A stretch of DNA of 64,000 nucleotides from Alphaproteobacteria bacterium (GCA_965214705.1 CBDCCI010000001.1:1-64000); one strand, 5' to 3'. Positions 11,126 to 60,098 are shown, counted from the stretch's first letter. A program made the numbers and translations. Notes: generated by a model from the sequence alone, not told the origin.

Positions 11126-12937
11126 TCATGCGCGGCCGTCCTCGCACAACGCCTCTTCCACGGCGCTCCAGAGGTCGAGGAAAGCGTCTGGCACAATGCG
11201 GCGGCCTTCCTCGGTGCTGCGGAAGTCCTCGATTAGGCGGCGCACGGGTTCCAGCCGCTCGGGATCGCGTGAGGCGGTGCGAACGAGGCTCTCAAGAAGG
11301 GTCTCGTCACCCGGCACGTCGGACCAAGGTGCTCCATCGCCGTTCGCATTCCGGCCGTGCGCCCAGTCGATCATTCCGTCGAGGCCGCCCAGCAGCGCGC
11401 GGAGAAAGGCCATGAAGCGCTCTGCATCGCCGATCAGGCTTCTGAGGACATGGTGCAGGCGGTCTTCAGGCATGCCCTCGACGGGGAGGCTGAGCGTGAG
11501 GGCGATGTCGTCGATCCCCGGCACGGAAACATGCAGACGGAAGGCAACGAGCCGAGTAAGACGCTCAATCGGCAGGGTCCAGACCAAGGGGAGTTCGAGC
11601 GGGAGCGCCTGTTCCTCGGCCAACGAGATCGGCCACGCCTTGACATCCACATCGGGCGTCGGGTCGGGGAGCGAACCTTCGAGGCTCCAATTCCAGTTAG
11701 GGTCCGACGGTGAGCAGACAACTGTGAGATCGGCGTCGAGAAGCGCATCCCGCGTGGCCTCAATGCGCTCCAGCGCCTCCGCCATCTCGGCCGACTCGGT
11801 CTCGGGCTCGCCGCGCCGGTATGGCTCGCAGAGTGCCTCGAAGCCGGACTCGAGGAAGCGCCCAATTCCGTATCCGCTGTTGCCGTTGCGGCGACCCTTG
11901 CGGGCGCTCAGGGCGGCCATGACCTCGACGTTCCTGCCGGAGAGCGCGGCAGAGGTCAGGTTCGCGGACCCTACCAGCCATGTGACGTCCCAGCCGTGCT
12001 CTACCGCAATGAACTTGGCATGCAGCCCGGAAGGTCTGCTGGCGTTCTCGTCCTCCATCTCGTCGAGAGCGACATCCGAGATCACGCAGACGCGATTCCA
12101 GCCTGCCAGCACGCTGTCGGGCAGCTTGTCCAGCTCTTCCCGGGAGCTGACCAGCATGCGCTGGCCCTCGCCCATCCCGGCGACCGAATTCAGCGCCGTA
12201 CTTCCGACGAAGGGAGCAACAGCGATCATGTCGTATCCGTCGGAAATGGGCTGCCACAACCGACCGATTGCCTCTCGCCCGCCGATGCCAAGGACATGGA
12301 ACTCGATGGGGTCGTCGAAGAACCCGTCGGGCGCCGCGAAACCGGTTCGCGCGACCTCCTCGGCCAGGACCTGGACCTTGTCGACGACGGAAGGGGACGG
12401 CGATTCCTCGCACAGGGCGGGGAGGTGCCTGATCAGCTCGGCAAGTGGGCGGCTTCCTGGAGTCTGCCGCCTGGGCTTGGGTGACCCTTCGCTCGCCAGT
12501 GCGATGTCCCAGGAACGGTCGAATGTGAGGTTCCGCGACAGGACGGCGACACGTATCAGAGGCGCTCCGTCTTCAGACATGAAGCGCAGCACCCAGACCT
12601 TGGGGTGGAACGCCCCGCGGCCTGGCGCGTGCACGGGATGCACGCTCGGTTCCAGCATCGCATAGAGCTCACGCCTCTGGCGGGGAATGGCGATACCGGC
12701 CCGATCCACGAAGACGTGGATTCGTTCGCCCGCCCGGCGCAACGCCTCGAGAAGGAGAAGGGGATCTGCGAGCAGTTCCTCCAGCCTGTTGTCCGCCCGC
12801 GCGACAAGACCCAAAGGCAACGCGAGCAACGCCTCCAGATCGAGGGTGTAGGTCGTCAGTAAGGCGAAATCGAGGTCGTAGCCGGCCGGCGGGCGAAGCA
12901 GATCGAAGGCGACGGTTCTGGAGTCGGGTGAGAGCAT
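11126..12937 (-). CDS. Phospholipase-D-family nuclease (two HxK motifs) of the Azaca-like operon
   Basis: FHPKVWVL and LHAKF...GSANLT; start/stop overlaps with both neighbours. Confidence 0.85.
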   Translation of the reverse strand: MLSPDSRTVAFDLLRPPAGYDLDFALLTTYTLDLEALLALPLGLVARADNRLEELLADPLLLLEALRRAGERIHVFVDRAGIAIPRQRRELYAMLEPSVHPVHAPGRGAFHPKVWVLRFMSEDGAPLIRVAVLSRNLTFDRSWDIALASEGSPKPRRQTPGSRPLAELIRHLPALCEESPSPSVVDKVQVLAEEVARTGFAAPDGFFDDPIEFHVLGIGGREAIGRLWQPISDGYDMIAVAPFVGSTALNSVAGMGEGQRMLVSSREELDKLPDSVLAGWNRVCVISDVALDEMEDENASRPSGLHAKFIAVEHGWDVTWLVGSANLTSAALSGRNVEVMAALSARKGRRNGNSGYGIGRFLESGFEALCEPYRRGEPETESAEMAEALERIEATRDALLDADLTVVCSPSDPNWNWSLEGSLPDPTPDVDVKAWPISLAEEQALPLELPLVWTLPIERLTRLVAFRLHVSVPGIDDIALTLSLPVEGMPEDRLHHVLRSLIGDAERFMAFLRALLGGLDGMIDWAHGRNANGDGAPWSDVPGDETLLESLVRTASRDPERLEPVRRLIEDFRSTEEGRRIVPDAFLDLWSAVEEALCEDGRA

Positions 12938-14005
12938 CAGGCCGCAAGCCCTCCGTGTAGGTCGAGCAGCATCCGGCTGACACGATGCCAGCGGAAGTTC
13001 ATCCGCCCGACTCCGACCCGTCCGCTCCAATCGAGGAGACGAGCGGGGTTGTGAAGCCTCGCCCGCGACCCCTTGAGCTGTTGTTCCCGATTCTCGATCA
13101 AATCACGCAGTGTGGGATCGTCTGCGATCGCAGTCGGCCCGACTTCGGGAAGGCGCGTCGACCAGGCCTCGACGAATGGGCGCTGCAAACGGGGAACATG
13201 GACGTGGCGGGATCGGGCGAAGGTCCAAAGTCTGGCCGGATCGAATGACTCCTCATCGGCTTCCTGAGCCGCCCATTCGTCGATTTCCTGCCTGTACCGT
13301 TCGACCGCTTCGTCGTCGCCGCCATGTTCGGAAAGGAATCGCTCGGCCAGTAACAGATTGTAGAGCAGCGGCATGCCCTCAACGTGGAGAGAGAAACGGC
13401 GGGCGAGTTCTATCGTGACCGTGAAATCAGCATGGGCGTGCGTCGCGGCGCTGTCATCCCAGAAGCAGCCGTCCGACCTCGCATCCGATCCCTCTCGAGC
13501 CATCCATGCGAGCAGCGAGCCTGCACAGCGCTCCTCCAGCCGTCCCTGAAGAAAGGCCGCCTCCTCTCGAGTCAGGTCGAAGGAAGCCTCATGGGGAAAC
13601 TCCGGCGGGGGAGCGGGCAACCGGGGATGCCAGTTCGGCTGGCGGGTCTGGACAATGCCCGGGTCGTCCGCGGTTTCCTGCGCGCCGCCGCTGCGCAGGA
13701 GGCCCGTAAAGTGGGTGTGGTACCAGCCTTGGGGCCGCTCATGCAGAAACAGGCCCCAGCGGACGAGCGCGGTCCAGTAGACCGAGCTGGGCTGCCGGGC
13801 CAGCGATCCGCGCGCGCGTTCGCCGATCACACCCTGGGATTTGCCGTTCTTGAGGAGCGGCCCAATAAGGTCGAGTTCGGCCTTCCGCAGCTGCGTTGAA
13901 ACGTCGGAGGCGGTGGTTCTCCAAGCTTCAAGCTGACGGTATATCCACGGAACGAACAGCACGTAACGCAATCGCGTCTGGATCGTAGAGGTTCCGGGAA
14001 AGGTT

Positions 14006-14047
14006 AAGGGTTGGGCAGGCTCTCTCTCGAGAGCCTGCCCAACCCTT
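14006..14047. repeat. Perfect 19-bp stem, 4-nt loop hairpin at the element end
   Basis: AAGGGTTGGGCAGGCTCTC-TCTC-GAGAGCCTGCCCAACCCTT; also at 60054-60095. Confidence 0.95.
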
Positions 14048-14309
14048 TTGAACGAAGCCGCGGGCCACGAGAGGCGAAGTTGAGCTATGTGGAAAGTGCG
14101 CTGATGTCAGCGTCAGGCGGCATCCACCGGCAGCAGAGTTGCGCATAAAATCGACGCTCGCGCCGGTCTTTCGGCAGGCATGCGGGCGCACGCTGCGAGG
14201 ACTGAGCGGGGTGTGAGCCGAGGGCTGTCAGCCCGGCTCAAGCGGAGACAGGTTCGGTCGTGCGTCGGCGCTTTGGCGCCGTTGCGCGGGGCCGAAGCGA
14301 GCGGCCGTC

Positions 14310-15548
14310 TCACGGTTTCCCCCTGTGGGTCGGCGGCAGCGCCGGCGGGCCGCGCGTCGAGCGGGGCTCATGGCGGCGGCGGATTTCGCGGACGAGGCGC
14401 ATGACGCCGCCGCAGTGGGGGCAGGCCACGGGCGCGGTGCCGATCTCGGGCTCTTCGTCGGGCTCGGCCTGAGCGCCGTCCACGCTTCCCTCGGGGGCGG
14501 CGCAGCCGAGGGCGCCGAGAGCCTGGCGTGCTCTCTCCAGCGTGCTGGCGCGGCAGCCGTTGGCGAGGATGCCGAAGTAGCGAATGCGGTGCATGCCGTC
14601 CGGCAGGACGTGCCTCAGGAAGCGGCGGATGAACTCGTCGGCGCTCACGGTGGCGATGCCGTAGCGCGGCTTTCTCTGCCCCGGCGCCTTGGGCTTTCGG
14701 TGGCGGAAGGAGACCGTCTCGCCGTCGAAGGAGACGATGCGGCTGTCGGAGATGGCGATCCTGTGCGTGTAGTGCGAGAGGTACCGGAAGACCTGCTCAG
14801 GCCCGCGGAAGGGCCGCTTGGCGTAGACCACCCAGTCCCTGGCCCGGGCGGCGGCAAGCGTGGCGTGGAACTCGCCGGGATTGGCGAGGTGGGCGAGGGT
14901 GCCGTGGAACTCCAGGTCCCCCCGGCCGTGGGCGCGGGCGAGCTCCTTGAGGAAGAGGCGGCGGAACAGGCTGCCGAGGACCTTGACGGGGGCGAGGAAG
15001 GTGGTGCTCCCCGTCTTCCACTCGCCACTGTCTACGTCGAAGCCCGCGTTGGGCACGACCACGTGCAGGTGCGGGTGGAAGCGGAGCTTCTGATCCCAGG
15101 TATGGAGGACCGCGGTGCCGCCGATGCGCATGCCGCCGTGGCGGGGATCGGCGGCGATGGTGCGCAGGGTCTCGGCGACGGCCCGGAAGAGGATGTCGAA
15201 CACCACCCTGCGGTTGCAGAAGGCAATGGCGGCAACCTCCTTGGGCAGGGTGAAGACCACATGGAAGTAGGGCACCGGCAGGATGTCCCCGGCGCGCTCC
15301 TCGCTCCAGAGGTTGGCGGCGAGACCCTGGCAGGTGGGGCAGTGGCGGTTGCGGCAGGAGAAGAGCGGATGCTCGCGCCCGCAGCCCTCGCAGGCGTACA
15401 TGTGGCCGCCGAGCACGGCGGTGCGGCACGCCTCGATGGCGCCCATGACCTTGAGCCGGGCGGCGTCGATGCGCCCTTTGTGGCGCTCACGGAAAGCGGC
15501 GCCGGCGCGGCGGAAGATCTCCGCCACGCCCGCGCGTTCGGCCTCCAC
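14310..15548 (-). CDS. IS91-like rolling-circle transposase (Zn-binding + Y2_Tnp)
   Basis: CRT...CEGC...SCRNRHCPTC, HVVFTLP, LHTW...HPHLH (HUH), YLSHY (YxxxY). Confidence 0.92.
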   Translation of the reverse strand: MEAERAGVAEIFRRAGAAFRERHKGRIDAARLKVMGAIEACRTAVLGGHMYACEGCGREHPLFSCRNRHCPTCQGLAANLWSEERAGDILPVPYFHVVFTLPKEVAAIAFCNRRVVFDILFRAVAETLRTIAADPRHGGMRIGGTAVLHTWDQKLRFHPHLHVVVPNAGFDVDSGEWKTGSTTFLAPVKVLGSLFRRLFLKELARAHGRGDLEFHGTLAHLANPGEFHATLAAARARDWVVYAKRPFRGPEQVFRYLSHYTHRIAISDSRIVSFDGETVSFRHRKPKAPGQRKPRYGIATVSADEFIRRFLRHVLPDGMHRIRYFGILANGCRASTLERARQALGALGCAAPEGSVDGAQAEPDEEPEIGTAPVACPHCGGVMRLVREIRRRHEPRSTRGPPALPPTHRGKP

Positions 15549-15554
15549 GCGCCG

Positions 15555-16433
15555 TCAGTTGCGCAACGCTGCGAAGCCTGAGATCGGGTGGTCGAGGCCC
15601 TCGAACATCTTGCCGGTGACGCGGGCGTAGTGACGGGTCGTGTTCGCGCTTCGATGGCCGAGCATGTCCCGGATCACCTCGATATCGCCGCCGCGCTCGA
15701 GGAGATGGGTCGCCGCCGAATGGCGCAGGCAATGGAAGGTGTAGCTGCGGTCGAGCTCGGCAATGTCGCGCGCCCTCCTGAAGGCGGCCTGCAAGGTCTC
15801 CGTTGCGATGGGCCTGTCGAGCGAGACGCCGTAGAAGAGCCAGCTCGTCGGACGCGGCCAGATGTTCCTGTAGTAGACGCGCAAGTAGTGGATGACGATG
15901 TCCGGCAACGGTGCCATTCTCTCGGTGCCGCCTTTGCCGGAGGGGATGTGCAGCAGCTTCTTCTCCGACAGGATGTCGCCGACCTTGATGGCCAAGGTCT
16001 CGGAGATGCGGAGCCCGCCGCCATAGCCGGTGACAATGGCAGCACGGTGGCGGAGGTCGGGTGTCGCAAGGATGAGGTGCTCGACCTCCTGCTCCGACAT
16101 GTAGCGCGGCAGCTTGCCGGGCTTCTTGCGGGAGCGCAGGCCGGCGACATGGTCAGGCCAGCCGAGTGTGTCGATGTAGAGGAAGTTCAGCGCGGCGAAG
16201 GAGACGTTGGTCGTGCCCGGACTGAGCCCCTTGTCGATCCGCCCCAGGTACCACTGGCGCACCTGCTCGGCGTCGAGCTCGTCCGGCGAGGCGTCGTAGT
16301 ACCTGGCCAGGTTCTTGATCTCGCAGATGTAGGCCTTGGACGTGCTCGCGGCCAGATTGGCGATGCGGAGCTGCTCCTCCATGCGCTGGCGAAGAGGGGT
16401 GACGGTGTTCGTGTCGCACGCGGTCCCGGTCAT
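15555..16433 (-). CDS. Tyrosine recombinase (XerD/IntI-like)
   Basis: GLRISE, GKGG, HCLRHSAATHLLE, LGH, TTRHY: full catalytic set. Confidence 0.92.
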   Translation of the reverse strand: MTGTACDTNTVTPLRQRMEEQLRIANLAASTSKAYICEIKNLARYYDASPDELDAEQVRQWYLGRIDKGLSPGTTNVSFAALNFLYIDTLGWPDHVAGLRSRKKPGKLPRYMSEQEVEHLILATPDLRHRAAIVTGYGGGLRISETLAIKVGDILSEKKLLHIPSGKGGTERMAPLPDIVIHYLRVYYRNIWPRPTSWLFYGVSLDRPIATETLQAAFRRARDIAELDRSYTFHCLRHSAATHLLERGGDIEVIRDMLGHRSANTTRHYARVTGKMFEGLDHPISGFAALRN

Positions 16434-16931
16434 TATCGATCTCCCTGGATCGCGACGGCGCGCCGCCGGACCGATCCGGCGACGGTCCGTCGCAGGGGTC
16501 GATGCTAACCACTGGTGATCGGGAGGCTGCTGGGGATCCGCCACCCGACGGGCGGAGCGCCACTGACGCAACCGGGAAGCGAACGCACAGAACAAACGGC
16601 ACCCGCGACGCCTCGGAAATGAATGAACTCTACGCCGCTAACTCCGCGTAGCGGCTTCGTTCAAGAGAGCTTCGGAGAGCGCGTCGCGCAGACTGCCGAG
16701 GCCCATCTCGTCGACGGTTCCCTGTTCATTGAAGAGATCCAAGACCTGCCGCATCCTGTCCCGGTCGCTCGCCGTCAAGTCGAGCCAAGTCAGTGTTGCG
16801 CCCATGCCCCTCTATCCGCCAAAGTGAAGGTGAGATGTGGTTCGTTGATGAAGTGATCGAAGTGTAGCTGTCACATATTGAGCATGCGCGCTTCCGGGGG
16901 CAATGTTTCACGCCCGATTACACCTACACCT

Positions 16932-19900
16932 CTAGCCTCTGCGCGCAACCGAATAGACGGTGCCTGAGGTCACAGCGACGACCATGCCGCGTTCTGCGCC
17001 GGTCATGTCGAGGTAGGCGCGCACCTGGGCGCGGTAGTGCTCGAGGGTCTCGGGCGTGGGGTCCACGTCGCTCTTCCAGTCGATCACCACCTGCGGCGCA
17101 CCGTCTGCATCGAAGGCGATGGCGTCGACGATTCCTGCCGCCGCTTCCTCGTGGCTGTCGGTCTCGGTGGAGGCGTAGACCGGGAGTTCCGGCACGAGCC
17201 CCGGCCGGAGGGCAGCGACCTCGGGTAGCGCGAGGGCCCGGAGGACACAGCCGGCAAGCTCGGCCGGGGCCAGACCCTGCGCAGGGTCATCCTCCACGGG
17301 TAGGCCCAAGGCGCGGATAAGAATTTCGGCGCGAGCGGCGAGGTCCGTCTCCTCCTCAACCGTCTCGCCGGTGAGGACCTCCTCGATCAGCTTGTGCAGG
17401 ATGGTTCCGCGCTCGCGCCCGCCCTGGATCCCGGCGGTGGCGGCGCCATCCGCTGGCGCGCCGTCGCCGTCGGTCGCGAGGATCGTTGGCGCTTCCTCCC
17501 GCAACACCGGCTGGGCGCTGTCCTCGTCCCGGCTGGGTGCACGCCAGACGATGCGGAGCGTGCGCTCGGCAATCGCGGCGGCCTCGGCGGCGAAGGACTC
17601 GCGCGTCTGCGCATTCTCCGCCGAAGGCTCGCCCGTATCCATCTCGGGCGGAAGCTGCTCCAGGGCGAGAGCGGGCAGCGCGTCCAATCCCAGATCGACG
17701 ACCGAGAGCCAGGCCGCGCCGGCGGCGGCGACATCGAGCCTGGATAGGACGAGAAGCTCGCGGGCCCGCGTGGCGGCGACGTACCAGAGGCGCACCCGCT
17801 CGCGGTCGAGTTCTTCCCCTTCGTCGCGACGGGCCGCTTCGTGGCCCGTCGGCGCCACGCCGAACACGGGGCAGTAGAAGCGCCCGCTGGCGCGGTCGGT
17901 GACGGCGCTCCCCGCCGACCTCACCCGTGTCATGGTGTTGGTGGGCACGACGATGGGCCATTCGAGCCCCTTGGCGGCGTGCATGGTGTAGAGCGCAACC
18001 GCGTCCTCCTGGGCGTCGGGCCTGCCTTCCACGGCGCGGGCCTCGTCGCTCCAGGCGGCCGTCATCGCCTCGGCGAAGGCGCGCAGGCCCCGCACCGCGT
18101 AGGCGCGGCTGAAGCTGAGGTAGAGGTCGACGTTGGCAAGGGCTCGCTCCGCCTGGCCGCGATGACGTCTGAGCAGAATCGGCCGGACCCGCAGCACGTC
18201 GACGGCCTGGGAGAGCAACGCGTGGGGCGTGGTCGCGTTTACCTGGCGGCACAGCGCTTGAAGCTTCTCGACTATGTCCCTGGCGTGCGCGTGTGCGATC
18301 GCCTCCGGCGCCACGCTGAGATCGAGCCGGGGCAGCCTGTCGGGATCGTCGTCAGTGCGCGGCAACGCCCAGACGATGTCGAGCAGCTCCTCCTCGCTCA
18401 GTCCCACCAGCGGCCCGCGCAGCAGCGCGCCGAGGGCGAGCGTGTCGCGCCGGTCGGCGAGCACGCGGGTCACGGCGATGAGGTCCTGGATCTCCTGACG
18501 CCGGTAGAGGCCCTTGCCGGCCTGCGTGGCGACGGGGATGCCGCGCTGCTCCAGCGCCTCCTCGTAGCGCCAGAGCTCGCTCCCGGTCGGCGGCGCCAGC
18601 AGGGCGATGTCGCCGGCCCTGCACGGGCGCTCTCCGCCGTTCTCGTGGTCACGAATTTGCTCGCTGCCGATCATGCGAGCGCACATGTCGGCGACTGCCT
18701 CGGCCTCACCATCCCGTTGTTGCGCAGCGGATGCCTTGCCGTTCTCGTCGGCCACTTCAATGTCCAGGGCGGCGACAGACGGTCCCTCGGCCCGCGCAGG
18801 CTGGAATGGATCGAGGGCCTGGAAGCCGGGCTGCCCCTTTTCCTCCGAGAGCGGCGCCTCGAAGCGTGCGTTCACGTAATCCATGATCGGCGCGCAGGAG
18901 CGGAAGTTGGTGGCGATGGAGAGCACGCCCTCCGCCGCTTGCGCGCGGAATGCCTCCCGTGCGGTGACGTAGGCTGCGATGTCGGCGCCGCGGAAGCGGT
19001 AGATCGCCTGCTTGGGATCGCCCACGAGGAAGAGCGCGCCCGGCCGAAGCACGAATGCTGTCCAATCGCCATCGTCTCCGTCTGTCGGCGGCTCGCCGCA
19101 GAGGCGCCAGAAGATTTCGGTCTGGAGCGGGTCGGTGTCCTGGAACTCGTCGACGAGGACGTGGCGGTAGCGTACGGCCAGCGCGCGGCGAACATCGTCG
19201 TGATCGCGCAGGAGATCGCGCGCCGAGAATATCAGGTCGTCGAAGTCGAGCAGCGCCGCCGCGCGCTTATGTTCCCGGAAGCGCGCCATGACCGGCTCGA
19301 CCAGGGGAACGAGATCGGCAAGAACATGAGTGGCGACAGCCCCGTGAAACGCCGTCCACGTCGCGCAGCAAAGAGCGTAGAGAGCGCTGGCCGCATCGTT
19401 CAGGCGATCCGCATCGGCTTTGGCCAGACCCGTACGTTTTGCAGCAGCGCCCCACTTTCCCTTCTTACGATACGAACGAAAGGAGCCTGATCCAGTGAAG
19501 AGGTCGTCGTGGGGCGCCGTGACCAGCAGCCGGACGAGTCGGTCAGGCGTCTCGGCCGGAAGCGCCTCTTCGATCTCTTCGGCCAACTCGTGGAAGCGGC
19601 CGGCGATGGCGGCGGTCTCGGGCTCCTCGGCGTCTTCACTGGCCAGGAATTCGTCGAAGGCTTCCACCGCTTCTCTAAACGCGGTCGCCAATTGAGCTAT
19701 GTCTTTCCGCTCATAGGGGGCGAAGGCCCGGTGACGGCGGAGATGATCGAGGACGGTGCGAATCAGCGTCACCGTCTGGTCGGGATCGTGGAGGACCAGC
19801 TCGGCCAGCAGGCCACCGGCCTCGCCGGCCAGCTCCTCCCGCAGCCAGGTGTCGATAAGCTCGTGGAAGACGAGATCCGCCTGGTCTCGGTCCATCACGC

Positions 19901-20324
19901 CGGCACCCGGGTCGATGTCGGCTTCCACCGGATAGGGCGTGATGAGGCGCTGGCAGAAGCCGTGGATGGTCGAGCAGGTCATCTCGTCGAGCGCCGCGTC
20001 CGCCGCCGCGAGTTTGCGCCGCTGCTCGTCCGAGAGCCCCCCCGGCAAGGCGACGCGAAGCTCGATCGGGATGTCGCCGGCTATGAGCGCGCCCACAAAG
20101 GCCCGCACCCGGATCAGCAGCTCGCTCGCCGCGAACTCGGTGAAGGTCACGGCGGCGATGGACTTGGGCGTCGCACCGCCTGCCAGCAACATGGCGATAC
20201 GGCCGGCCATGACAGCGGTCTTGCCCGAGCCCGCCCCAGCCTCGACGAGGAAGGAGCGGTCGTGGACCGCGATGGCGTCCCGCCGGGCGGCATCGTCGGA
20301 GAGGGTGCGTCGCCGGGCCACCAT
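16932..20324 (-). CDS. UvrD/AddA-like helicase with C-terminal PD-(D/E)xK nuclease
   Basis: EAGAGSGKT, LVDEFQDTD, VGDPKQAIYRFRGAD, TMHAAKGLEW, YVAATRAR, GIVD...VIDWKSD. Confidence 0.9.
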   Translation of the reverse strand: MVARRRTLSDDAARRDAIAVHDRSFLVEAGAGSGKTAVMAGRIAMLLAGGATPKSIAAVTFTEFAASELLIRVRAFVGALIAGDIPIELRVALPGGLSDEQRRKLAAADAALDEMTCSTIHGFCQRLITPYPVEADIDPGAGVMDRDQADLVFHELIDTWLREELAGEAGGLLAELVLHDPDQTVTLIRTVLDHLRRHRAFAPYERKDIAQLATAFREAVEAFDEFLASEDAEEPETAAIAGRFHELAEEIEEALPAETPDRLVRLLVTAPHDDLFTGSGSFRSYRKKGKWGAAAKRTGLAKADADRLNDAASALYALCCATWTAFHGAVATHVLADLVPLVEPVMARFREHKRAAALLDFDDLIFSARDLLRDHDDVRRALAVRYRHVLVDEFQDTDPLQTEIFWRLCGEPPTDGDDGDWTAFVLRPGALFLVGDPKQAIYRFRGADIAAYVTAREAFRAQAAEGVLSIATNFRSCAPIMDYVNARFEAPLSEEKGQPGFQALDPFQPARAEGPSVAALDIEVADENGKASAAQQRDGEAEAVADMCARMIGSEQIRDHENGGERPCRAGDIALLAPPTGSELWRYEEALEQRGIPVATQAGKGLYRRQEIQDLIAVTRVLADRRDTLALGALLRGPLVGLSEEELLDIVWALPRTDDDPDRLPRLDLSVAPEAIAHAHARDIVEKLQALCRQVNATTPHALLSQAVDVLRVRPILLRRHRGQAERALANVDLYLSFSRAYAVRGLRAFAEAMTAAWSDEARAVEGRPDAQEDAVALYTMHAAKGLEWPIVVPTNTMTRVRSAGSAVTDRASGRFYCPVFGVAPTGHEAARRDEGEELDRERVRLWYVAATRARELLVLSRLDVAAAGAAWLSVVDLGLDALPALALEQLPPEMDTGEPSAENAQTRESFAAEAAAIAERTLRIVWRAPSRDEDSAQPVLREEAPTILATDGDGAPADGAATAGIQGGRERGTILHKLIEEVLTGETVEEETDLAARAEILIRALGLPVEDDPAQGLAPAELAGCVLRALALPEVAALRPGLVPELPVYASTETDSHEEAAAGIVDAIAFDADGAPQVVIDWKSDVDPTPETLEHYRAQVRAYLDMTGAERGMVVAVTSGTVYSVARRG

Positions 20325-20657
20325 CACGCGGCGTCCCAGATCTGCGCGGCATCCCCCAGCAGCGCGGTGGCGGCGGCCTCCTTGCGCGGGCGGTAGATGG
20401 CACCGGCGTTGGCCGGGAGTGCGAAGGCGAGTTCGTCGTAGCCCCCGCCGGTGTCCGCGCCCATCACCGCGCCGCCGGAAACGAGATTGGCGCGCGCCGC
20501 CTGCAGGTGGCCGGTGAGCGTGCTGAGCACGGCATCGGGGTCGTCGAGCCGCAGGTCCAGCTCGTCGCGCGGATAGAGGAGCGATGCCGCGATGGCCACC
20601 TTCTTGCCCAGCAACGCCTTGACGGCGAAAGCGTAGAGGCAGCGCTGAAGCTCCCGG
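20324..20657 (-). pseudogene. C-terminal remnant of an AddB-like PD-(D/E)xK protein, truncated by IS21
   Basis: ELQRCLYAFAVKALLG...; stop overlaps the helicase start; cut at the IS21 end. Confidence 0.6.
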
Positions 20658-20759
20658 TGTAGGTGGCTGCGGAGAAGTGCGCTTATTTGGTGAATTCGTC
20701 ACCAGGGTAGGGTGACGCTGTAGCAGCCAGGTTGGCGGTTGGATGCGTGCCTCGGCGGA

Positions 20760-20829
20760 GCTGTGGGTAAATCGGCTTGCCGCAGCGACCGCCCTCGAGT
20801 CTGGCAAGGCAAGCCGATTTATCCACAGC
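20760..20829. promoter_or_regulatory. 22-bp inverted repeat with DnaA-box-like arms
   Basis: GCTGTGGGTAAATCGGCTTGCC / GGCAAGCCGATTTATCCACAGC; perfect TTATCCACA at 20819-20827. Confidence 0.7.
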
Positions 20830-21061
20830 GGGCAGCGGTCTCGATTCTGATTTCGGCGGCCTCGCCGGCGGCAGTTCTGCAGGCCTGACAGCAAGATCGG
20901 CGGGGGTAGACTCGGGCCGCTGAGAACGATGCGGCGCCGGCCACGTCTGCTTGCTGGCAAGAGCCGACGCCGCACCCCCGGAGCCGTGCCGGGCACGGCC
21001 CGCATGCACAGTATCGTGCGGGATTTTGCGGGGGTCGAGCCCGTTCTCATCGACCGCCGCG

Positions 21062-28557: not shown

Positions 28558-29409
28558 TCAGGTTGTCCCGATCCGGCGCTCCCACCCGCAATTCCTTGCG
28601 GGGAGCCGCGGGCACTCCGCGCCGATCGCCATCAGCGGGACATTGGCGCGTATCTCCACCTGGTCGGGGCGGAGCTTGGCGAAGACGAGGCAGGCGGCGA
28701 CCTCGGCTTCGGTCTCGACGCTCTCGATGACGTCGCCGGTGTCGAGCCTGATCACGGTGTACTCCGGGAACGGCACGGGCAGATGGTGAGAGTCGAGTGC
28801 GCGCGAGTTGGATCTCCGGGCGCAGTCCGGGCAACGCGCAGGGCCGGAAACGGGGATCGAGCAATCCACACAGATCCCCTGCACCTTGCGTCTGGCGTAG
28901 CGTTTCCTGCTGGCCGCTTTCCTGCGTTCGGGCGACGTGCGCCCCGCCTCGAGCACGGTGCACCGGCCGCAGCGGGACGGGCCGTTGAACGCCGCTCGCC
29001 CGCATCGCACGCATCGCCCGGCAGCACGGCGGGAGGCGTATCGTTCGCGCTCGATCGCGCGCTGCTCCTCGCGGCACGGCTCGCAGATGGAGCGGCCGTC
29101 GGCGGGCCGGCGGCTTCCGCAGACCGTGCAGAGGCCCGCGTCCCGCCGCGCCCTCCGCCGCTGCTTGTCCGCAGCGCGGGCGGCGCGTCGGCAGCGTTCC
29201 GGATCCCGGCCAGCGTAGATCAAGCCCTTCGCCCGGGCCCTGGCGCGGCGGGCCTTCTCGGCGGCGCGCCGCTTCTCGCCGCAGCGCCGGCACAGCTTGA
29301 GGCCGGGCTCCGGCGGGAACGTTCCGCACCGGGTGCAGATGCCGCGGGCGACCCGGTCGGCATGGCGCCGACGCTGGCGCTCTTGTGCGGACTCGTCGCG
29401 GCTGGGCAT
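28558..29409 (-). CDS. Cys/Arg-rich multi-Zn-ribbon protein
   Basis: Eight CxxC pairs separated by Arg-rich segments; paralog at 1-621. Confidence 0.75.
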   Translation of the reverse strand: MPSRDESAQERQRRRHADRVARGICTRCGTFPPEPGLKLCRRCGEKRRAAEKARRARARAKGLIYAGRDPERCRRAARAADKQRRRARRDAGLCTVCGSRRPADGRSICEPCREEQRAIERERYASRRAAGRCVRCGRAAFNGPSRCGRCTVLEAGRTSPERRKAASRKRYARRKVQGICVDCSIPVSGPARCPDCARRSNSRALDSHHLPVPFPEYTVIRLDTGDVIESVETEAEVAACLVFAKLRPDQVEIRANVPLMAIGAECPRLPARNCGWERRIGTT

Positions 29410-29484
29410 GGCATCCTCGAAGACGTGGGTGTAGACGAAGGCCGGGTGAGCGGCCGGCGGCGCCGCCCCCGGCCGGGTCGCCGG

Positions 29485-29805
29485 TCAGCAGCGCCACTTG
29501 CCGCGCAGCGCGATGCCGGCGGCGGAGTCTCCGAAGAGCTGCATTCCCGCGTCGCGGTCGACACTGGTGGCGACGATGATCTCGTTGGGCACCGGTCGCA
29601 AACGCCGGACGGCCCTGCCCGAAAGAGTCGTGCGCCGTTCGCGCCGCCCCGCGCCCTCCTTGCCGGCACCGAGCGGGCGGATCTCGCCCGAGGCCGCCGT
29701 CTCGTATCTCTCGACCACGTAGCGGCCCTGCTCCTGGAGGCCACCGCCGAAGAAGTGCACCAAGTAGGTGCTGGCAGCGCGTTGGATCGTTCTCGCCGTG
29801 CTCAT
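29485..29805 (-). CDS. Hypothetical 106-aa protein; paralog of 691-1011
   Basis: GGAGA RBS; mostly synonymous divergence from the first copy. Confidence 0.75.
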   Translation of the reverse strand: MSTARTIQRAASTYLVHFFGGGLQEQGRYVVERYETAASGEIRPLGAGKEGAGRRERRTTLSGRAVRRLRPVPNEIIVATSVDRDAGMQLFGDSAAGIALRGKWRC

Positions 29806-32944: not shown

Positions 32945-34162
32945 TCAGGGCCCCGCCCGATGCCGGGCAGCCTCAACCGCCTCGCGGCATCTGTAAAGAT
33001 CCTCCCCGATGCTGGCCGCGACCTTGGCCGCCGACCCCTTGACGGAATCCCGTGCCAGGTGCGCATACCGCGCGGTGGTCTCGACCTGCGTGTGGCCAAG
33101 CAGCCTGCCGATCATCGGCAGGCTCTCGCCCAGCGCGAGCGCCCTGCTGGCCCAGGAATGACGCAGGTCATGAAGCCGCACGTCCTCCAGCCCAGCGCGG
33201 CGGCGGATGACATCCCAGGACTGGTTGAGGTTGCGCAGGTGCGTGCGGCGCTTCTTGCCCACGATCACCCAGGGATTGTCCGCAACGCGCGGCAGATCGG
33301 ACAGAAGCCTTGCCGCAGCCGGCGACAGCGGCACCGCCCGCGGACCCGTCTTCGAGTCGGCGAGGTGCAAGACCTTCGCCTCAAGGTCCACATCGCTCCA
33401 GCGCAGACCCAGTATCTCGCTGCGCCGGCACCCCGTCAGCATCAGCAGGCGCAGCGCGGCCACCGCGTACTTCGACGCGCCCCCCTCGTCGGCTGCGTCT
33501 GCGAGCACGCGGCCAAGGCGCCGGAACTCCTCCTCGGTCAGAAACCGCTCGTGCTTGCGGGTCCTGTACTTCGGAAACGAGCGGCACGGATTGGTCCCCT
33601 CCGGCACCAGCTCCCACGCCTCCGCACGATTGAACATGCGGGAGAGAACCGCAACCACGTGGTTCGCCGTGGCCGGTCGGTCGCGCAGCCGGAAGTGAAG
33701 ATCGGCCACCTGCTTGCGCTCGACGGCCTCTATGGGAACGTCGCCCAGCGCGGGAAGGATGTGGTTCTTCAGCATCAGGCGGCACAGCTCCACAGTCCTC
33801 GGCTTGCACCGGACAGCCACGTGCTCCGTCAGGTAGCGCTCCGCCAGCGCTGCAACCGTCGGACCCTCCGGCCTGGGCGCTTCGGGATTCCTGGGGCTCA
33901 CCTCCTCTCCCGCCTTGATGCGCGTGATCATCTGCGCCGCCCGCTGGCGTGCCTGCTCGGCCGTCAGCACCCCGTGCCGGCCCACCGTGACCCGCCTCGA
34001 CTTCCCCTTCGCGCGGGCCTGAACGATGTACACCTTCTTGCCCGACGCATAGGCCCGCACCCCGAAGCCCGAAAGCTCCCGGTCCCAGAAGATCGTGTCC
34101 TTATCGACCTCCAGTCCCTCCACCATGCGCTTCGAGATCGATCTGTGGTGCAGCTTAGCCAT
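32945..34162 (-). CDS. Tyrosine integrase with arm-binding (DUF4102-like) domain
   Basis: FWDRELSGFGVR, TGCRRSEI, LHDLRHS, LGH...TTARY. Confidence 0.92.
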   Translation of the reverse strand: MAKLHHRSISKRMVEGLEVDKDTIFWDRELSGFGVRAYASGKKVYIVQARAKGKSRRVTVGRHGVLTAEQARQRAAQMITRIKAGEEVSPRNPEAPRPEGPTVAALAERYLTEHVAVRCKPRTVELCRLMLKNHILPALGDVPIEAVERKQVADLHFRLRDRPATANHVVAVLSRMFNRAEAWELVPEGTNPCRSFPKYRTRKHERFLTEEEFRRLGRVLADAADEGGASKYAVAALRLLMLTGCRRSEILGLRWSDVDLEAKVLHLADSKTGPRAVPLSPAAARLLSDLPRVADNPWVIVGKKRRTHLRNLNQSWDVIRRRAGLEDVRLHDLRHSWASRALALGESLPMIGRLLGHTQVETTARYAHLARDSVKGSAAKVAASIGEDLYRCREAVEAARHRAGP

Positions 34163-34201: not shown

Positions 34202-35392
34202 TCATGCCGCCTCCGCGTCCGGAACCATGATGTCGGCCTCGATGCTGTCCGCCACCCTGGCCGCAGACACCTTCTCCGTGTCCTGCGCGAGATGAGCGTA
34301 GCGCGCCGTCGTCTGCACCTGCGTGTGGCCGAGCTGCCTGCCGATCATCGGCAGGCTCTCGCCCAGCGCCAGCGCCCTGCTGGCCCAGCTATGTCGAAGG
34401 TCGTGGAGGCGCACGTCCTTCAGGTCGGCCCGTACCCGCAGCCGATACCAGAGCTCGTTGACGTTCCTCAGGTGATTCCCCGACCTTTTCCCCGCGATCA
34501 CCCACGGACTGCCGGGCATCCGCGGGATCGCGTCCAGCACCGCCGCCGCCGTGGGCGTCAGCGGCACCATCCGCCCTCCCGTTTTCGCGTCCCTGAGGCG
34601 CAACTCGCCGGCGGTCCGGTCGACGTCGTCCCATCGTAGCGACAGGATCTCGTTGCGCCGGCAGCCGGTCAGGATCAACAAGCGGATCGCGGCAATGGCG
34701 GGGGGCCAGGCCGTGCCCTCTGCCTCCATCTCGTCCAGGACCCGGCCCAGGCGCTGGTACTCCTCGGCGCTCAGGAACCGCTGCGGCTTGCGCTCCTTGT
34801 ACTTGCGCACAGACCGGCACGGGTTCCGCCCCTGCGGGTGAAGGCCCCACACCTCGGCCAGGGAATACATCTTCTTCAGAATGTCGACCGACCTGTTCGC
34901 CGAGCTCGGCCGGTCACGCAGCGCGTAGTGCAGGTTCGCCACGTGCGTGCGCTCGACCGAGCCGATCGGCATGGAGCCCAGGACGGGCAGGATGCAGTTC
35001 CTGAGAAGCCCGTCATAGCGCACCGCCGTCGCAGGCTTGCAGTTCACCGCCACATGCGCGCGCATGAAGCGGTCGGCAAGGTCGGCTACGGTCGGCCCCT
35101 TCTCCTTCTCGGGCTCAGCCGGCAGCGGCTCCTGCCCGGTCTTGATCCTGTCGATGATCCCGGCGGCGCGCTTGCGCGCCTGCTCTGCGGTGATCTTCCC
35201 GTGCCGGCCCAGCGTGACCCGCCTGGAGCCTCCCGGCCCCCGGCTCTGCACCACGTAGACCTTGCGGCCGGAGGGGTAGACGCGCACCCCGAAGCCGGAC
35301 AGGTCGCGGTCCCAGAAGATGGCGTCCCGATCCTCGACGAAAAGGGCATCGACGGTCCGTTTGGAGATTGTGCGCTCCCGACACTGTGACAT
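34202..35392 (-). CDS. Tyrosine integrase, tandem paralog
   Basis: Same motifs: FWDRDLSGFGVR, TGCRRNEI, LHDLRHS, TTARY. Confidence 0.92.
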   Translation of the reverse strand: MSQCRERTISKRTVDALFVEDRDAIFWDRDLSGFGVRVYPSGRKVYVVQSRGPGGSRRVTLGRHGKITAEQARKRAAGIIDRIKTGQEPLPAEPEKEKGPTVADLADRFMRAHVAVNCKPATAVRYDGLLRNCILPVLGSMPIGSVERTHVANLHYALRDRPSSANRSVDILKKMYSLAEVWGLHPQGRNPCRSVRKYKERKPQRFLSAEEYQRLGRVLDEMEAEGTAWPPAIAAIRLLILTGCRRNEILSLRWDDVDRTAGELRLRDAKTGGRMVPLTPTAAAVLDAIPRMPGSPWVIAGKRSGNHLRNVNELWYRLRVRADLKDVRLHDLRHSWASRALALGESLPMIGRQLGHTQVQTTARYAHLAQDTEKVSAARVADSIEADIMVPDAEAA

Positions 35393-55686: not shown

Positions 55687-56014
55687 TTTCGGAAGAGTTT
55701 CTGGATTTTCATGTCAGCCAAACCTGTTTTCCCAACTGTCCAGGGGAACGAAGCGGCCCTCGTCCACAACGGTGTAATAGACCTTGAACGAAGCCGCTAC
55801 GCGGAGTTAGCGGCGTAGAGTTCATTCATTTCCGAGGCGTCGCGGGTGCCGTTTGTTCTGTGCGTTCGCTTCCCGGTTGCGTCAGTGGCGCTCCGCCCGT
55901 CGGGTGGCGGATCCCCAGCAGCCTCCCGATCACCAGTGGTTAGCATCGACCCCTGCGACGGACCGTCGCCGGATCGGTCCGGCGGCGCGCCGTCGCGATC
56001 CAGGGAGATCGATA

Positions 56015-56893
56015 ATGACCGGGACCGCGTGCGACACGAACACCGTCACCCCTCTTCGCCAGCGCATGGAGGAGCAGCTCCGCATCGCCAATCTGGCCGC
56101 GAGCACGTCCAAGGCCTACATCTGCGAGATCAAGAACCTGGCCAGGTACTACGACGCCTCGCCGGACGAGCTCGACGCCGAGCAGGTGCGCCAGTGGTAC
56201 CTGGGGCGGATCGACAAGGGGCTCAGTCCGGGCACGACCAACGTCTCCTTCGCCGCGCTGAACTTCCTCTACATCGACACACTCGGCTGGCCTGACCATG
56301 TCGCCGGCCTGCGCTCCCGCAAGAAGCCCGGCAAGCTGCCGCGCTACATGTCGGAGCAGGAGGTCGAGCACCTCATCCTTGCGACACCCGACCTCCGCCA
56401 CCGTGCTGCCATTGTCACCGGCTATGGCGGCGGGCTCCGCATCTCCGAGACCTTGGCCATCAAGGTCGGCGACATCCTGTCGGAGAAGAAGCTGCTGCAC
56501 ATCCCCTCCGGCAAAGGCGGCACCGAGAGAATGGCACCGTTGCCGGACATCGTCATCCACTACTTGCGCGTCTACTACAGGAACATCTGGCCGCGTCCGA
56601 CGAGCTGGCTCTTCTACGGCGTCTCGCTCGACAGGCCCATCGCAACGGAGACCTTGCAGGCCGCCTTCAGGAGGGCGCGCGACATTGCCGAGCTCGACCG
56701 CAGCTACACCTTCCATTGCCTGCGCCATTCGGCGGCGACCCATCTCCTCGAGCGCGGCGGCGATATCGAGGTGATCCGGGACATGCTCGGCCATCGAAGC
56801 GCGAACACGACCCGTCACTACGCCCGCGTCACCGGCAAGATGTTCGAGGGCCTCGACCACCCGATCTCAGGCTTCGCAGCGTTGCGCAACTGA
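56015..56893 (+). CDS. Tyrosine recombinase (copy 2)
   Basis: Same translation as 15555-16433. Confidence 0.92.
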   Translation: MTGTACDTNTVTPLRQRMEEQLRIANLAASTSKAYICEIKNLARYYDASPDELDAEQVRQWYLGRIDKGLSPGTTNVSFAALNFLYIDTLGWPDHVAGLRSRKKPGKLPRYMSEQEVEHLILATPDLRHRAAIVTGYGGGLRISETLAIKVGDILSEKKLLHIPSGKGGTERMAPLPDIVIHYLRVYYRNIWPRPTSWLFYGVSLDRPIATETLQAAFRRARDIAELDRSYTFHCLRHSAATHLLERGGDIEVIRDMLGHRSANTTRHYARVTGKMFEGLDHPISGFAALRN

Positions 56894-57196
56894 CGGCGCG
56901 TGGAGGCCGAACGCGCGGGCGTGGCGGAGATCTTCCGCCGCGCCGGCGCCGCTTTCCGTGAGCGCCACAAAGGGCGCATCGACGCCGCCCGGCTCAAGGT
57001 CATGGGCGCCATCGAGGCGTGCCGCACCGCCGTGCTCGGCGGCCACATGTACGCCTGCGAGGGCTGCGGGCGGGAGCATCCGCTCTTCAGATACCATGAG
57101 CACGGTGGCACCGAATCGATTCTGGCGGTTAGACAAGCTCGGAGAGAAGGCCAGCACCTTCTCTCCGAGCGGAATCGTCAACAACGGAGTGGACGG

Positions 57197-58393
57197 ATGT
57201 CGGATGGTCCAGACACGACCGCGCTGACAGGCGCAAGTAGTAGCACGATTTATGTCGCGGTGGAGATCAGCCTCAAATCGTGGATCGTTGGCGTGCATTG
57301 CCCGGATGCCTCGGGTGGCAGCATCAGCATCCACACACTGGCTGCTGCCGACACGGCGGGACTGTTGGATCTCGTCGGGTCGGTGCGGGAACGGGTGGCG
57401 AGGGAGCTCGGCGCCCGTCCTCGGGTGATGCTGACCTACGAGGCGGGCTACGAGGGGTTCTGGCTTGCCCGCGATATCGAGCGCCGTGACGCGGAGATCG
57501 ATATCTTCATGAACGATCCGGCGAGCCTGCGGGTGAACCGGCGCGCCAAGAAGAAAAAGACCGACCGTATCGACGCGAGGAGGATGGTTCGGGCTCTGAA
57601 GGCATGGGACCAAGGCGATTCGGAGGCCATGTCCTGGGTGCGCGTGCCCGATGTGGACCAGGAGGATGCCAAGCGCCTGCTGCGCGAGAGGGACACGCTG
57701 ATCAGCGAGCGTACCCGCGTCAACAACCGGATCAAAGGGCTCTTGCAGTTGCACGGCATCTTCGATCTGGCGCCGCGCAAGCCGGACTTCCTCGAACGCC
57801 TCGCGACCGCGCGGACGGGCTATGGGGCGCCGTTGCCGCCGCGTGCGCGGGCAGAGATTGAGAGGGCGGTGGGGATGCTTCGCCTGGTTGAGGAGCATAT
57901 CGAGATGATCGAGGCCGAGAAGAGGGCCCTGCTGAAGGCTGGCCGGAAAGCCCAGGACGCGACCAATCGTGACGGGACGGCGATGATCGCGGCGCTTACG
58001 CGCATCCATGGCATCGGCCTCAATGACGCCACACTGCTGGCTGGCGAGGTGTTCTATCGGGACTTCCGCAATCGCCGGGAGTTGGGCAGCTGGGCCGGGT
58101 TGACGTCGGTGCCGTGGGCGAGCGGAGATGTCGACCACGATCTTGGCATCAGCAAGGCCGGCCCCTCGCATGTCAGGAAGCACATGATCCAGATGGCTTG
58201 GCGCTGGCTGAAGCTGCAACCGGAAAGCGCGATCACGAAGTGGTTCCACGCCTACGTCGCCAGGGATGCCGGTGGCGGGAGGGACCGGCGAGCGAGGAAG
58301 CGGGCGATCGTGGGGGTCGCGCGCAAGCTGCTGATCGCGCTGTGGCGCTATGCCACCCAAGGACTGGTGCCTGAGGGCGCCATCGTCTCCTGA
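57197..58393 (+). CDS. IS110 recombinase (RuvC-like + Tnp20 domain)
   Basis: VAVEIS, YEAG, KTDRIDA, PWASG, GISKAG, VARKLL. Confidence 0.92.
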   Translation: MSDGPDTTALTGASSSTIYVAVEISLKSWIVGVHCPDASGGSISIHTLAAADTAGLLDLVGSVRERVARELGARPRVMLTYEAGYEGFWLARDIERRDAEIDIFMNDPASLRVNRRAKKKKTDRIDARRMVRALKAWDQGDSEAMSWVRVPDVDQEDAKRLLRERDTLISERTRVNNRIKGLLQLHGIFDLAPRKPDFLERLATARTGYGAPLPPRARAEIERAVGMLRLVEEHIEMIEAEKRALLKAGRKAQDATNRDGTAMIAALTRIHGIGLNDATLLAGEVFYRDFRNRRELGSWAGLTSVPWASGDVDHDLGISKAGPSHVRKHMIQMAWRWLKLQPESAITKWFHAYVARDAGGGRDRRARKRAIVGVARKLLIALWRYATQGLVPEGAIVS

Positions 58394-58738
58394 GGGCACC
58401 GGCCGAACGAACGGGAAAATACAGGAGGTTCCGACGTGGTCGGACGCGGCCGCGGAGGATGCCGGGCAAGGCGTGTGACCGGGCAAGAGTTGGGTCGCCG
58501 CTTGGCACCGTTCTACAGATGGGTCCCGCCTCCCGGAACGTCACCACCGCTTGGATGCGGTATTGGGGTCACGGAGCCGGCAAGCGCCGGAGTTCCGAAC
58601 CGGATAAGAGCTGAGCAGCGTGGCGGATCGCTGCGTGGAAACGACGTTCTGCCTGGACATCGGCCGCGGATTCGAGTGGAGAGATTGCGAATGCCATTGA
58701 CGTAGATGAAGCCGGGCCTTGCGGAGAGAGCTCATAAG
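58394..58738 (+). ncRNA. Putative bridge/seekRNA region
   Basis: 345-nt non-coding 3' end with short matches to the target and donor junctions. Confidence 0.6.
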
Positions 58739-60098
58739 AACTCCTGCCGCAACCGCCACTGCCCCACCTGCCAGGGTCTCGCCGCCAACCTCTGGAGCGA
58801 GGAGCGCGCCGGGGACATCCTGCCGGTGCCCTACTTCCATGTGGTCTTCACCCTGCCCAAGGAGGTTGCCGCCATTGCCTTCTGCAACCGCAGGGTGGTG
58901 TTCGACATCCTCTTCCGGGCCGTCGCCGAGACCCTGCGCACCATCGCCGCCGATCCCCGCCACGGCGGCATGCGCATCGGCGGCACCGCGGTCCTCCATA
59001 CCTGGGATCAGAAGCTCCGCTTCCACCCGCACCTGCACGTGGTCGTGCCCAACGCGGGCTTCGACGTAGACAGTGGCGAGTGGAAGACGGGGAGCACCAC
59101 CTTCCTCGCCCCCGTCAAGGTCCTCGGCAGCCTGTTCCGCCGCCTCTTCCTCGAGGAGCTCGCCCGCGCCCACGGCCGGGGGGACCTGGAGTTCCACGGC
59201 ACCGTCGCCCACCTCGCCAATCCCGGCGAGTTCCACGCCACGCTTGCCGCCGCCCGGGCCAGGGACTGGGTGGTCTACGCCAAGCGGCCCTTCCGCGGGC
59301 CTGAGCAGGTCTTCCGGTACCTCTCGCACTACACGCACAGGATCGCCATCTCCGACAGCCGCATCGTCTCCTTCGACGGCGAGACGGTCTCCTTCCGCCA
59401 CCGAAAGCCCAAGGCGCCGGGGCAGAGAAAGCCGCGCTACGGCATCGCCACCGTGAGCGCCGACGAGTTCATCCGCCGCTTCCTGAGGCACGTCCTGCCG
59501 GACGGCATGCACCGCATTCGCTACTTCGGCATCCTCGCCAACGGCTGCCGCGCCAGCACGCTGGAGAGAGCACGCCAGGCTCTCGGCGCCCTCGGCTGCG
59601 CCGCCCCCGAGGGAAGCGTGGACGGCGCTCGGGCCGAGCCCGACGAAGAGCCCGAGATCGGCACCGCGCCCGTGGCCTGCCCCCACTGCGGCGGCGTCAT
59701 GCGCCTCGTCCGCGAAATCCGCCGCCGCCATGAGCCCCGCTCGACGCGCGGCCCGCCGGCGCTGCCGCCGACCCACAGGGGGAAACCGTGAGACGCCCGC
59801 TCGCTTCGGCCCCGCGCAACGGCGCCAAAGCGCCGACGCACGACCGAACCTGTCTCCGCTTGAGCCGGGCTGACAGCCCTCGGCTCACACCCCGCTCAGT
59901 CCTCGCAGCGTGCGCCCGCATGCCTGCCGAAAGACCGGCGCGAGCGTCGATTTTATGCGCAACTCTGCTGCCGGTGGATGCCGCCTGACGCTGACATCAG
60001 CGCACTTTCCACATAGCTCAACTTCGCCTCTCGTGGCCCGCGGCTTCGTTCAAAAGGGTTGGGCAGGCTCTCGAGAGAGAGCCTGCCCAACCCTTAAC

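Follow-up and report, generated by a model that had tools for sequence, protein, structure and literature searches.

How does an element that carries both an HUH transposase and a tyrosine recombinase move, and which of the two enzymes makes the cuts? The question is raised by an element found in a 64,000-nt stretch of DNA (hereafter the window) from Alphaproteobacteria bacterium (GCA_965214705.1 CBDCCI010000001.1:1-64000), to which all coordinates below refer unless a contig is named. An initial annotation of the window had noticed this pair of genes and had proposed that the HUH enzyme makes a single-stranded circle, which the recombinase integrates through a bulged hairpin formed by the joined ends. 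We found that the element is an active insertion sequence from the branch of the IS91 family that carries a recombinase, and that its ends fold, preferentially on the antisense strand, according to a plan kept in diverged relatives. As to its movement, we favour, at a probability of about one half, IS91-type rolling-circle transposition by the HUH enzyme, in which pairing of the ends defines the cuts and the recombinase has an accessory part.

The window is part of a 7.9-Mb genome in three contigs. When the element was compared with this genome by BLAST, 123 segments of at least 95% identity were obtained, with 66 uninterrupted full-length copies, 94 5ʹ ends and 92 3ʹ ends, so that the element exists as about 95 near-identical genomic copies; in the public run X1, the word depth of the element was about 95 times that of its flanks. 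The two near-identical copies first noticed in the window were confirmed, with 100% complementary arms, and the genome holds far more than two. The 5ʹ end was invariant in 90 of the 94 cases, the remaining four differing in the first two bases, and the tail AACC was the same in 92/92 3ʹ ends. The ends were paired into 89 copies, whose left and right flanks were joined and searched against the genome for uninterrupted sites. For 36 of these copies a match across the flank join was found elsewhere in the genome (identical over 120/120 nt for 12 of them), and these spanning matches are uninterrupted paralogous sites, mostly in other repeats. Copy 1 of the window interrupts a DUF6361 gene, fragments of which flank it on either side (Pfam). 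A contig of the metagenome run X3 skips from 13999 to 16663, a difference of 2663 nt with 3 nt ambiguous, and restores the DUF6361 gene; this contig is an orthologous empty site for copy 1. Because the paralogous empty sites fit only these bounds, the element runs from TTGAAC to TTAACC and makes no target duplication. Two other readings of the junctions were rejected: a final C of the tail derived from the target, since the empty sites fit only with the C inside the element, and a 2-bp TT duplication, since the empty sites hold a single TT and since TT is confined to the 5ʹ end in 11 of 77 sites. The earlier remark that only (C)TT is common to both junctions was borne out by the paralogous empty sites and by the X3 contig.

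The first 14 nt of the element, TTGAACGAAGCCGC, are complementary to positions 14048-14061, and the joined ends fold into stems of 14 and 19 bp with a 4-nt bulge and a dG of about -43 kcal/mol (DNA parameters). Thus the 14-nt end, the inverse arm, the 19-bp hairpin, the AACC tail and the 33-bp bulged junction stem are all as the initial annotation had described them, except that the stem was said to exist only in the circle. The same junction is present in a tandem at G000:C2:646629, and pairing is also possible in a linear displaced strand; as its formation requires the two ends to lie on a single strand, the end-to-end stem can arise in a circle, at a tandem junction or in a full-length displaced strand. 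The tandem (G000:C2:643959-649295) is a head-to-tail arrangement of two non-identical copies and a natural end-to-end junction, with the sequence that a circle junction would have; it is the only one among about 90 otherwise dispersed copies. Among the assembled contigs of the public runs no joint leading back from one end of the element to the other was listed, and the tandem by itself would already produce such a junction. Rolling-circle read-through was ruled out as its origin, as its two copies are 99.4% and 99.8% identical to the window copy and differ in hairpin-loop orientation; it therefore looks as if one copy had inserted itself at the edge of its neighbour.

Relatives of the recombinase were collected from species genomes (L014-L027), metagenomes (L040-L042), plasmid records and diverged families of the same genome, together with a sample of 400 Alphaproteobacteria genomes, of which 13 had a match at E <= 1e-40. 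The metagenome scan returned 21 loci, and the three close ones (L040-L042) were used while 18 distant recombinases were left out; L030-L039 were dropped as Xer-like genes without an IS91 gene, and the truncated L028 and L029 were not used for ends. Where several copies exist, the ends were read directly, namely in L015-L019, L020-L023, L089-L092 and element X, a second recombinase plus IS91 element (for example C1:1593700-1597300, L111; ten 5ʹ ends found) with identities to the window element of 34% for the recombinase and 40% for the transposase. The same end plan was found in 14 or more diverged lineages, one of them represented by a plasmid of the Bacteroidota (Emticicia). In this plan the 5ʹ end reads (TT)GAAC... 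and carries a small hairpin that covaries; at the other end, an arm complementary to the first 12-15 nt lies in a subterminal position and is followed by a long hairpin and by a 4-10-nt tail. Every lineage examined kept this plan, even where identity fell to 34% in the recombinase and 36-40% in the transposase, and in each of them the repeat is asymmetric, terminal at one end and subterminal at the other. The small 5ʹ hairpin covaries among the homologs (GCTGC/GCAGC, CCCGC/GCGGG, ACCGC/GCGGT), and the end-to-end stem has compensatory changes at 4 of its 14 positions across lineages. In an alignment of ten homologs the big hairpin has 15 consensus pairs, and in six of these both partners have changed; pairing holds in 96.6% of the cells, a value reached in 0/500 shuffles and falling to 25-49% when the partners are slid, although the aligned sequences are related, so that these controls overstate the significance somewhat and few contrasts are truly independent. 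The junction hairpin is thus conserved in both stems, with compensatory changes.

The strand on which the stems form was assessed with one representative from each of 13 lineages. Among the cells that are not Watson-Crick pairs, 23 are G·T on the antisense strand (C·A on the sense strand), three are the reverse and four are other mismatches; for the end-to-end stem alone the counts are six antisense G·T against zero sense. The antisense fold was the more stable one in 11 lineages, equal within 0.5 kcal/mol in two and worse in none, and the energy of the consensus hairpin is -26.4 for the antisense against -14.7 for the sense strand. Double-stranded protein-binding sites would not give such a wobble bias, and the 23:3 ratio therefore indicates that the stems function as single-stranded nucleic acid of the antisense strand. 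The 5ʹ end of this strand lies at the hairpin end, as expected for an IS91-type displaced strand, and the strand-biased wobble pairs give indirect support to rolling-circle transposition through single-stranded circles. The big hairpin was also considered as a terminator of the transposase gene and rejected, because its fold is weaker on the sense strand and is not followed by a T-run there. As a separate observation, its 4-nt loop (window 14025-14028) is inverted in 8/92 copies with the stem unchanged (flip/flop; for example C2:646629 and C1:325847), which is probably a single event in one subfamily, as the inverted-loop copies have a similar identity of about 99.6%.

A target logo was built from 77 unique insertion sites. 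The 3ʹ flank begins with T (64/77), T (74/77) and G (40/77), followed by C at +6 (57/77) and G at +7 (45/77), and the element is preceded by C or T in 64 sites and by G in two. Insertion takes place before TT(G). TT stands at both junctions in 62 sites. In 11 sites the 5ʹ end keeps TT with a 3ʹ flank of AT, CT or GA, and TT consequently belongs to the element. At two sites the 5ʹ end is CT and the flank TT; an empty paralog of one of them carries CT, so the cut was shifted by two bases at that site. Two more copies carry other changes in the first dinucleotide. The right half of the target, TTGnnCG, resembles the first bases of the element itself, TTGAACG, and 5 of the 92 3ʹ ends abut TTGAAC, one of these being another copy (the tandem at C2:646629) and two being 5ʹ ends of element X. 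The window element sits directly in front of three of the ten 5ʹ ends of element X, and element X adjoins a recurring palindromic motif, TTATGTTGAGCTCAACATAA-like.

For the canonical comparison, two IS91 copies are flanked by GAAC and CAAG and two IS1294-like copies by GAAC, all on the transposase-sense strand. Flanks here are TTG, TTT or TTC, in line with the earlier claim that they are neither GAAC nor CAAG. An identity with the IS91 target (C|TTG read as CTTG) was ruled out, as the canonical GAAC/CAAG lies on the transposase-sense strand and it is TTG that lies on that strand here. The principle of oriented insertion at a short motif downstream of the transposase holds for the element, with a motif that differs from GAAC/CAAG.

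Both proteins look catalytically competent as judged from their sequences, and Pfam and NCBIfam domains agree with the pairing of an HUH transposase with a tyrosine recombinase that had been proposed. The recombinase has the domains Phage_integrase (6.7e-33) and Phage_int_SAM_4 (7e-12; Pfam). Its NCBIfam matches are all below the equivalog cut-offs; TIGR02249 (integron integrase) matches in two separate stretches with 129 bits against a cut-off of 265, and the best solved relatives are XerC-like, XerD and IntI4. R142, K167, H234, R237, H260 and Y269, which we take to be its catalytic residues by family assignment, are invariant in the recombinase alignment. The 412-aa transposase contains Y2_Tnp (PF04986, 3.8e-54) and Zn_Tnp_IS91 (PF14319, 6e-28) and is a full IS91 equivalog (NF033538, 374.6 bits against a cut-off of 125); in Pfam it has only IS91-type domains, with no helicase domain and no Y1 domain of the IS200 type. 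Its H158/H160/H162 and Y256/Y260 are invariant in all ten aligned sequences, including IS91 and an IS1294-like element. The transposase gene begins 6 nt past the recombinase stop, and the IS91 transposase follows the recombinase in the same order in 21/21 homolog loci with downstream sequence. Within the genome, each gene for an IS91 transposase lies downstream of a recombinase. The same two-gene module occurs in Emticicia and on Skermanella and Mesorhizobium plasmids, with relatives also in Aminobacter. Across the homologs the transposase is 65-81% identical where the recombinase is 53-70% identical.

In the reading that we favour, the antisense strand would first be nicked directly beyond the tail at the hairpin end, behind the flanking ...CAA, and then peeled off from that end. 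The displaced far end (...GCGGCTTCGTTCAA) would base-pair with the subterminal arm beside the big hairpin, the 33-bp bulged hairpin being this paired state. Such pairing would set the termination cut, after GTTCAA, beside the first cut, and the strand would then be closed or transferred. On that same strand, cuts in new targets would follow CAA (N^TTGnnCG on the top strand); as the target resembles the left end, a short version of the pairing would be restored at the new site. The subterminal arm may thus be a docking sequence, pairing in full with the left end and perhaps in part with the flank or target (TTG..CG). The recombinase would act on the joined ends in a different context, for example in resolving head-to-tail dimers or double-stranded circles. 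The assignment of each cut to an enzyme, the sequence of events and the function of the recombinase are inferred here; that this function is accessory, and not that of an integrase of a single-stranded circle, is an assumption that we take.

Known IS91 biology gives this scheme its frame. For IS91 itself, tnpA alone suffices for transposition, and circles in which the ends are juxtaposed have been described (PMC13181058). The IS91-type model (PMC13181058, PMC5714925) places the origin downstream of the transposase, with cleavage 3ʹ of the flanking motif and termination at the left end. We favour the HUH enzyme for all transposition cuts because it is complete and IS91 needs only tnpA, and because the rule that relates the left end to the target motif is common to recombinase-free relatives and Helitron2 ends work without a recombinase. 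The element shares with IS91, IS801 and IS1294 an HUH Y2 enzyme with a zinc-binding N-terminus, the lack of a target duplication, the placing of the oriented insertion motif against the transposase-downstream end, subterminal palindromes at both ends and a left end that starts with a target-like motif; the left end and flank of an IS1294-like element, GAAC...|GAAC, parallel TTG...|TTG here. Unlike IS91 and IS1294, it has an extra tyrosine recombinase and a TT(G) target. IS91 has short terminal repeats and the IS1294-like element none, whereas here the 5ʹ end pairs with a subterminal 3ʹ arm. In this comparison, which covers two recombinase-free lineages, the joined ends of the canonical IS91 and of the IS1294-like element gave local hairpins only (a GC-rich left-end stem-loop).

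Several observations weigh against this reading. The accessory role is assumed for a recombinase that is strictly linked to the transposase and whose presumed catalytic residues are invariant, and the folded end architecture and the recombinase co-occur, both being absent from the two canonical elements. Positions +4/+5 of the target are without the A-A preference that simple pairing with the arm predicts, and when the guide-pairing rule was applied to element X, its flanks (TTAYG) did not mirror its arm. Finally, the two to four copies with a swapped or changed first dinucleotide are explained only by a 2-nt shift of the cut or by mutation.

The strongest competitor is the division of labour of the initial annotation, to which we give a substantial probability, though a lower one than to our own reading: the HUH enzyme would make a single-stranded circle, and the recombinase would join the folded junction to a double-stranded target, as IntI acts on attC x attI, with replication resolving the product. 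The attC bottom strand recombines between A and C of RYYYAAC in a folded form whose unpaired features set the strand choice (PMC5027507), and the attC-like geometry claimed for the junction matches it: the antisense arm ends in GTTCAA (RYYYAA) with the crossover right after AA, so that the R' consensus RYYYAA^C is fitted except at its last base, a one-sided bulge lies by the crossover, and the folded bottom strand is selected. Moreover, the site is split on integration as in a cassette, the unit beginning with TTGAAC (TTRRRY) and keeping the hairpin remainder at its end, and the enzyme itself is related to IntI and Xer recombinases. IS91 recombinases were assigned to an 'integron-like' subgroup by Smyshlyaev et al. 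(bioRxiv 10.1101/542381), who describe them as lacking the IntI-specific insertion. The strict linkage, the conserved catalytic residues and the canonical elements that have neither recombinase nor fold also speak for it. The 11 sites with TT at the 5ʹ end only fit a single-strand exchange of one phosphodiester, which an HUH cut predicts as well.

The likeness to attC has its limits. The base after GTTCAA is G, not C, and is unpaired, and a match of six degenerate positions may arise by chance. The antisense base after the crossover is a purine (top-strand G precedes TT in only 2/77 sites), the opposite of attC/attI, and the stems beside the bulge do not resemble one another as R and L boxes do. 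The match of the recombinase to the integron-integrase model falls into two separate stretches, the insertion typical of IntI is lacking according to that preprint, and the element has no attI platform or cassette array but a full HUH transposase system. The transposase keeps its tyrosines and HUH motif and should integrate alone as in IS91, and Helitron2 has the same ends without a recombinase. Of the original model, the enzyme pair and the conserved antisense fold are supported, and the recombinase as integrase of the circle is not. A more specific form of that model, in which an HUH transposase and an integron-integrase-like recombinase share the folded substrate and the recombinase inserts the antisense-circle hairpin before TT(G), with replication resolving it, is in our view about as probable. 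If it were true, the element could be seen as an integron cassette's relative that lives free and mobilises itself, and as a bacterial case of Helitron2-type ends. As HUH cuts (5ʹ-linked) and recombinase cuts (3ʹ-linked) predict the same ends and targets, sequence alone cannot decide between the two enzymes.

It is far less probable that transposition is really the work of the recombinase, which would excise and integrate a double-stranded circle as Crypton or Tn916 does, with the HUH enzyme replicating the circle or being a relic. The recombinase is conserved and linked, the palindromic hairpin could be a double-stranded core site, and the two cases of a 5ʹ CT with a TT flank, one with CT in its empty paralog, resemble segregation of a heteroduplex overlap. 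A double-stranded overlap, however, predicts the two junction patterns about equally often, and they occur 11 and 2 times; the wobble bias toward one strand is unexpected from double-stranded binding sites, and the HUH enzyme is conserved even more strongly than the recombinase. Very improbable, finally, is the view that the repeat and the hairpin never pair end to end and are two copies of a protein-binding site with an inward-facing terminator: the antisense hairpin of the window is followed by TTTT, and inverted repeats are protein-binding sites in most insertion sequences, but the T-run is absent in other lineages (in L020 the hairpin is followed by GCTTG), the one-sided changes are all wobble-compatible on the same strand, compensatory changes exist in the end-to-end stem, and the repeat is asymmetric throughout.

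Among known systems, Helitron2 has the same end architecture. Its asymmetric terminal inverted repeats consist of a 5ʹ repeat 0-2 bp from the end, which forms a 5ʹ hairpin, and a 3ʹ repeat that immediately precedes the 3ʹ hairpin, and pairing of the repeats was proposed to set the end point of replication (PMC3627910). Helitron2/Helentron elements (Bao and Jurka 2013, PMC3627910) are like the present element in end layout, compensatory mutations, T-rich target and lack of duplication, so that the parallel drawn in the initial annotation is accurate; unlike it, they are eukaryotic and encode a Rep-helicase (RepHel) fusion and no tyrosine recombinase. A literature search joining asymmetric terminal inverted repeats with IS91 found only Helitron papers. 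A precedent for reading the 3ʹ arm as a guide is IS608 of the IS200/IS605 family, in which an HUH enzyme works at subterminal hairpins and internal sequences at the foot of the hairpin recognise the cleavage and target sites by base pairing (PMC3201880, PMC5934647). IS608 differs in its Y1 enzyme of another fold family, its 4-nt guides and its cut-and-paste movement, and for the present element it is the logo that hints at target pairing. The recombinase-carrying IS91 elements on RefSeq plasmids and in the subgroup of Smyshlyaev et al. have the same two genes in the same order. For such elements our literature search found no description of the ends, the target or the function of the recombinase. 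ISfinder names such as ISMno23 and ISAzo26 presumably belong to elements of this kind.

These properties make the element well suited to working out which part the tyrosine recombinase plays in this branch of IS91. In the genome the ends of the near-identical copies are known to the base, 77 independent target sites can be compared and several diverged sister families are present, and a minimal substrate is defined by the 14-nt end, the 60-nt opposite end and the TTG flank, of which one specific strand must fold. The element also links IS91 elements, Helitron2 ends and integron attC sites, so far discussed separately, and this link bears on the termination of rolling-circle transposons and on the origin of structure-specific recombination sites.

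Table 1. Features of the two element copies in the window and of the insertions in copy 2.
Feature	Position	Strand	Basis or remark
Copy 1, complete element, 2663 bp	14002-16664	minus	Bounded by paralogous empty sites and the empty-site contig of run X3
5ʹ asymmetric terminal inverted repeat TTGAACGAAGCCGC, presumed termination (ter) end	16651-16664	minus	
Small 5ʹ subterminal hairpin GCCGC-TAC-GCGG, overlapping the 5ʹ repeat	16643-16655	minus	Read from sequence
Tyrosine recombinase gene, Xer/integron-integrase-like, ATG at 16433	15555-16433	minus	Pfam
IS91-family HUH Y2 transposase gene	14310-15548	minus	Pfam, NCBIfam
3ʹ subterminal inverted-repeat arm, GCGGCTTCGTTCAA on the minus strand	14048-14061	minus	Exact inverse of the first 14 nt
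Hairpin II, 19-bp stem and 4-nt loop, presumed origin-end hairpin	14006-14047	minus	
3ʹ tail AACC, one-sided bulge of the joined form, putative cut site at outer edge	14002-14005	minus	
Right half of the target kept as 3ʹ flank, TTTCCCGG on the minus strand	13994-14001	minus	Logo of 77 unique sites
Copy 2, 5ʹ part: recombinase and transposase start	55784-57088	plus	100% identical to 15360-16664, inverse orientation
IS110-family element, 1652 bp, not part of the element	57089-58740	plus	Pfam Transposase_20, DEDD_Tnp_IS110
Copy 2, 3ʹ part: transposase remainder, 3ʹ arm, hairpin and tail	58741-60099	plus	100% identical to 14002-15360, inverse orientation
DDE (DDE_Tnp_1) insertion sequence, ~2.09 kb, not part of the element	about 60100-62190	plus	Pfam

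Copy 2 (55784-60099) is split by the IS110-family element at element position 1306, within the transposase gene. A break at this position recurs in 17-18 copies genome-wide, and in 12 of these the insert measures about 1652 bp; the IS110-family element thus homes to one site inside another mobile element. Targeting by the IS110 family uses a bridge RNA. The DDE insertion sequence (region 60093-62196) lies in the last 6 bp of copy 2, with CTTAAC as a 6-bp duplication, and insertion into these final six bases should destroy the origin end. It accounts for the range of 55784-62199 first given for copy 2, which is a real copy with an overrun into the DDE insertion sequence. The same insertion sequence adjoins 8/92 element 3ʹ ends, in either orientation, between the hairpin and the flank.

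The DUF6361 gene interrupted by copy 1 (12937-14001 and 16665-16805, minus strand) lies directly downstream of a gene at 16932-21050 on the minus strand, whose 1372-aa product is a UvrD-type helicase with a C-terminal PD-(D/E)XK nuclease domain. The two genes may form a defence-like two-gene operon that was inactivated by copy 1. The window also contains other direct repeats, 11-964 with 28799-29758 (84-95% identity) and 33004-34105 with 34237-35332 (73-74% identity), which are unrelated to the IS91-type element.

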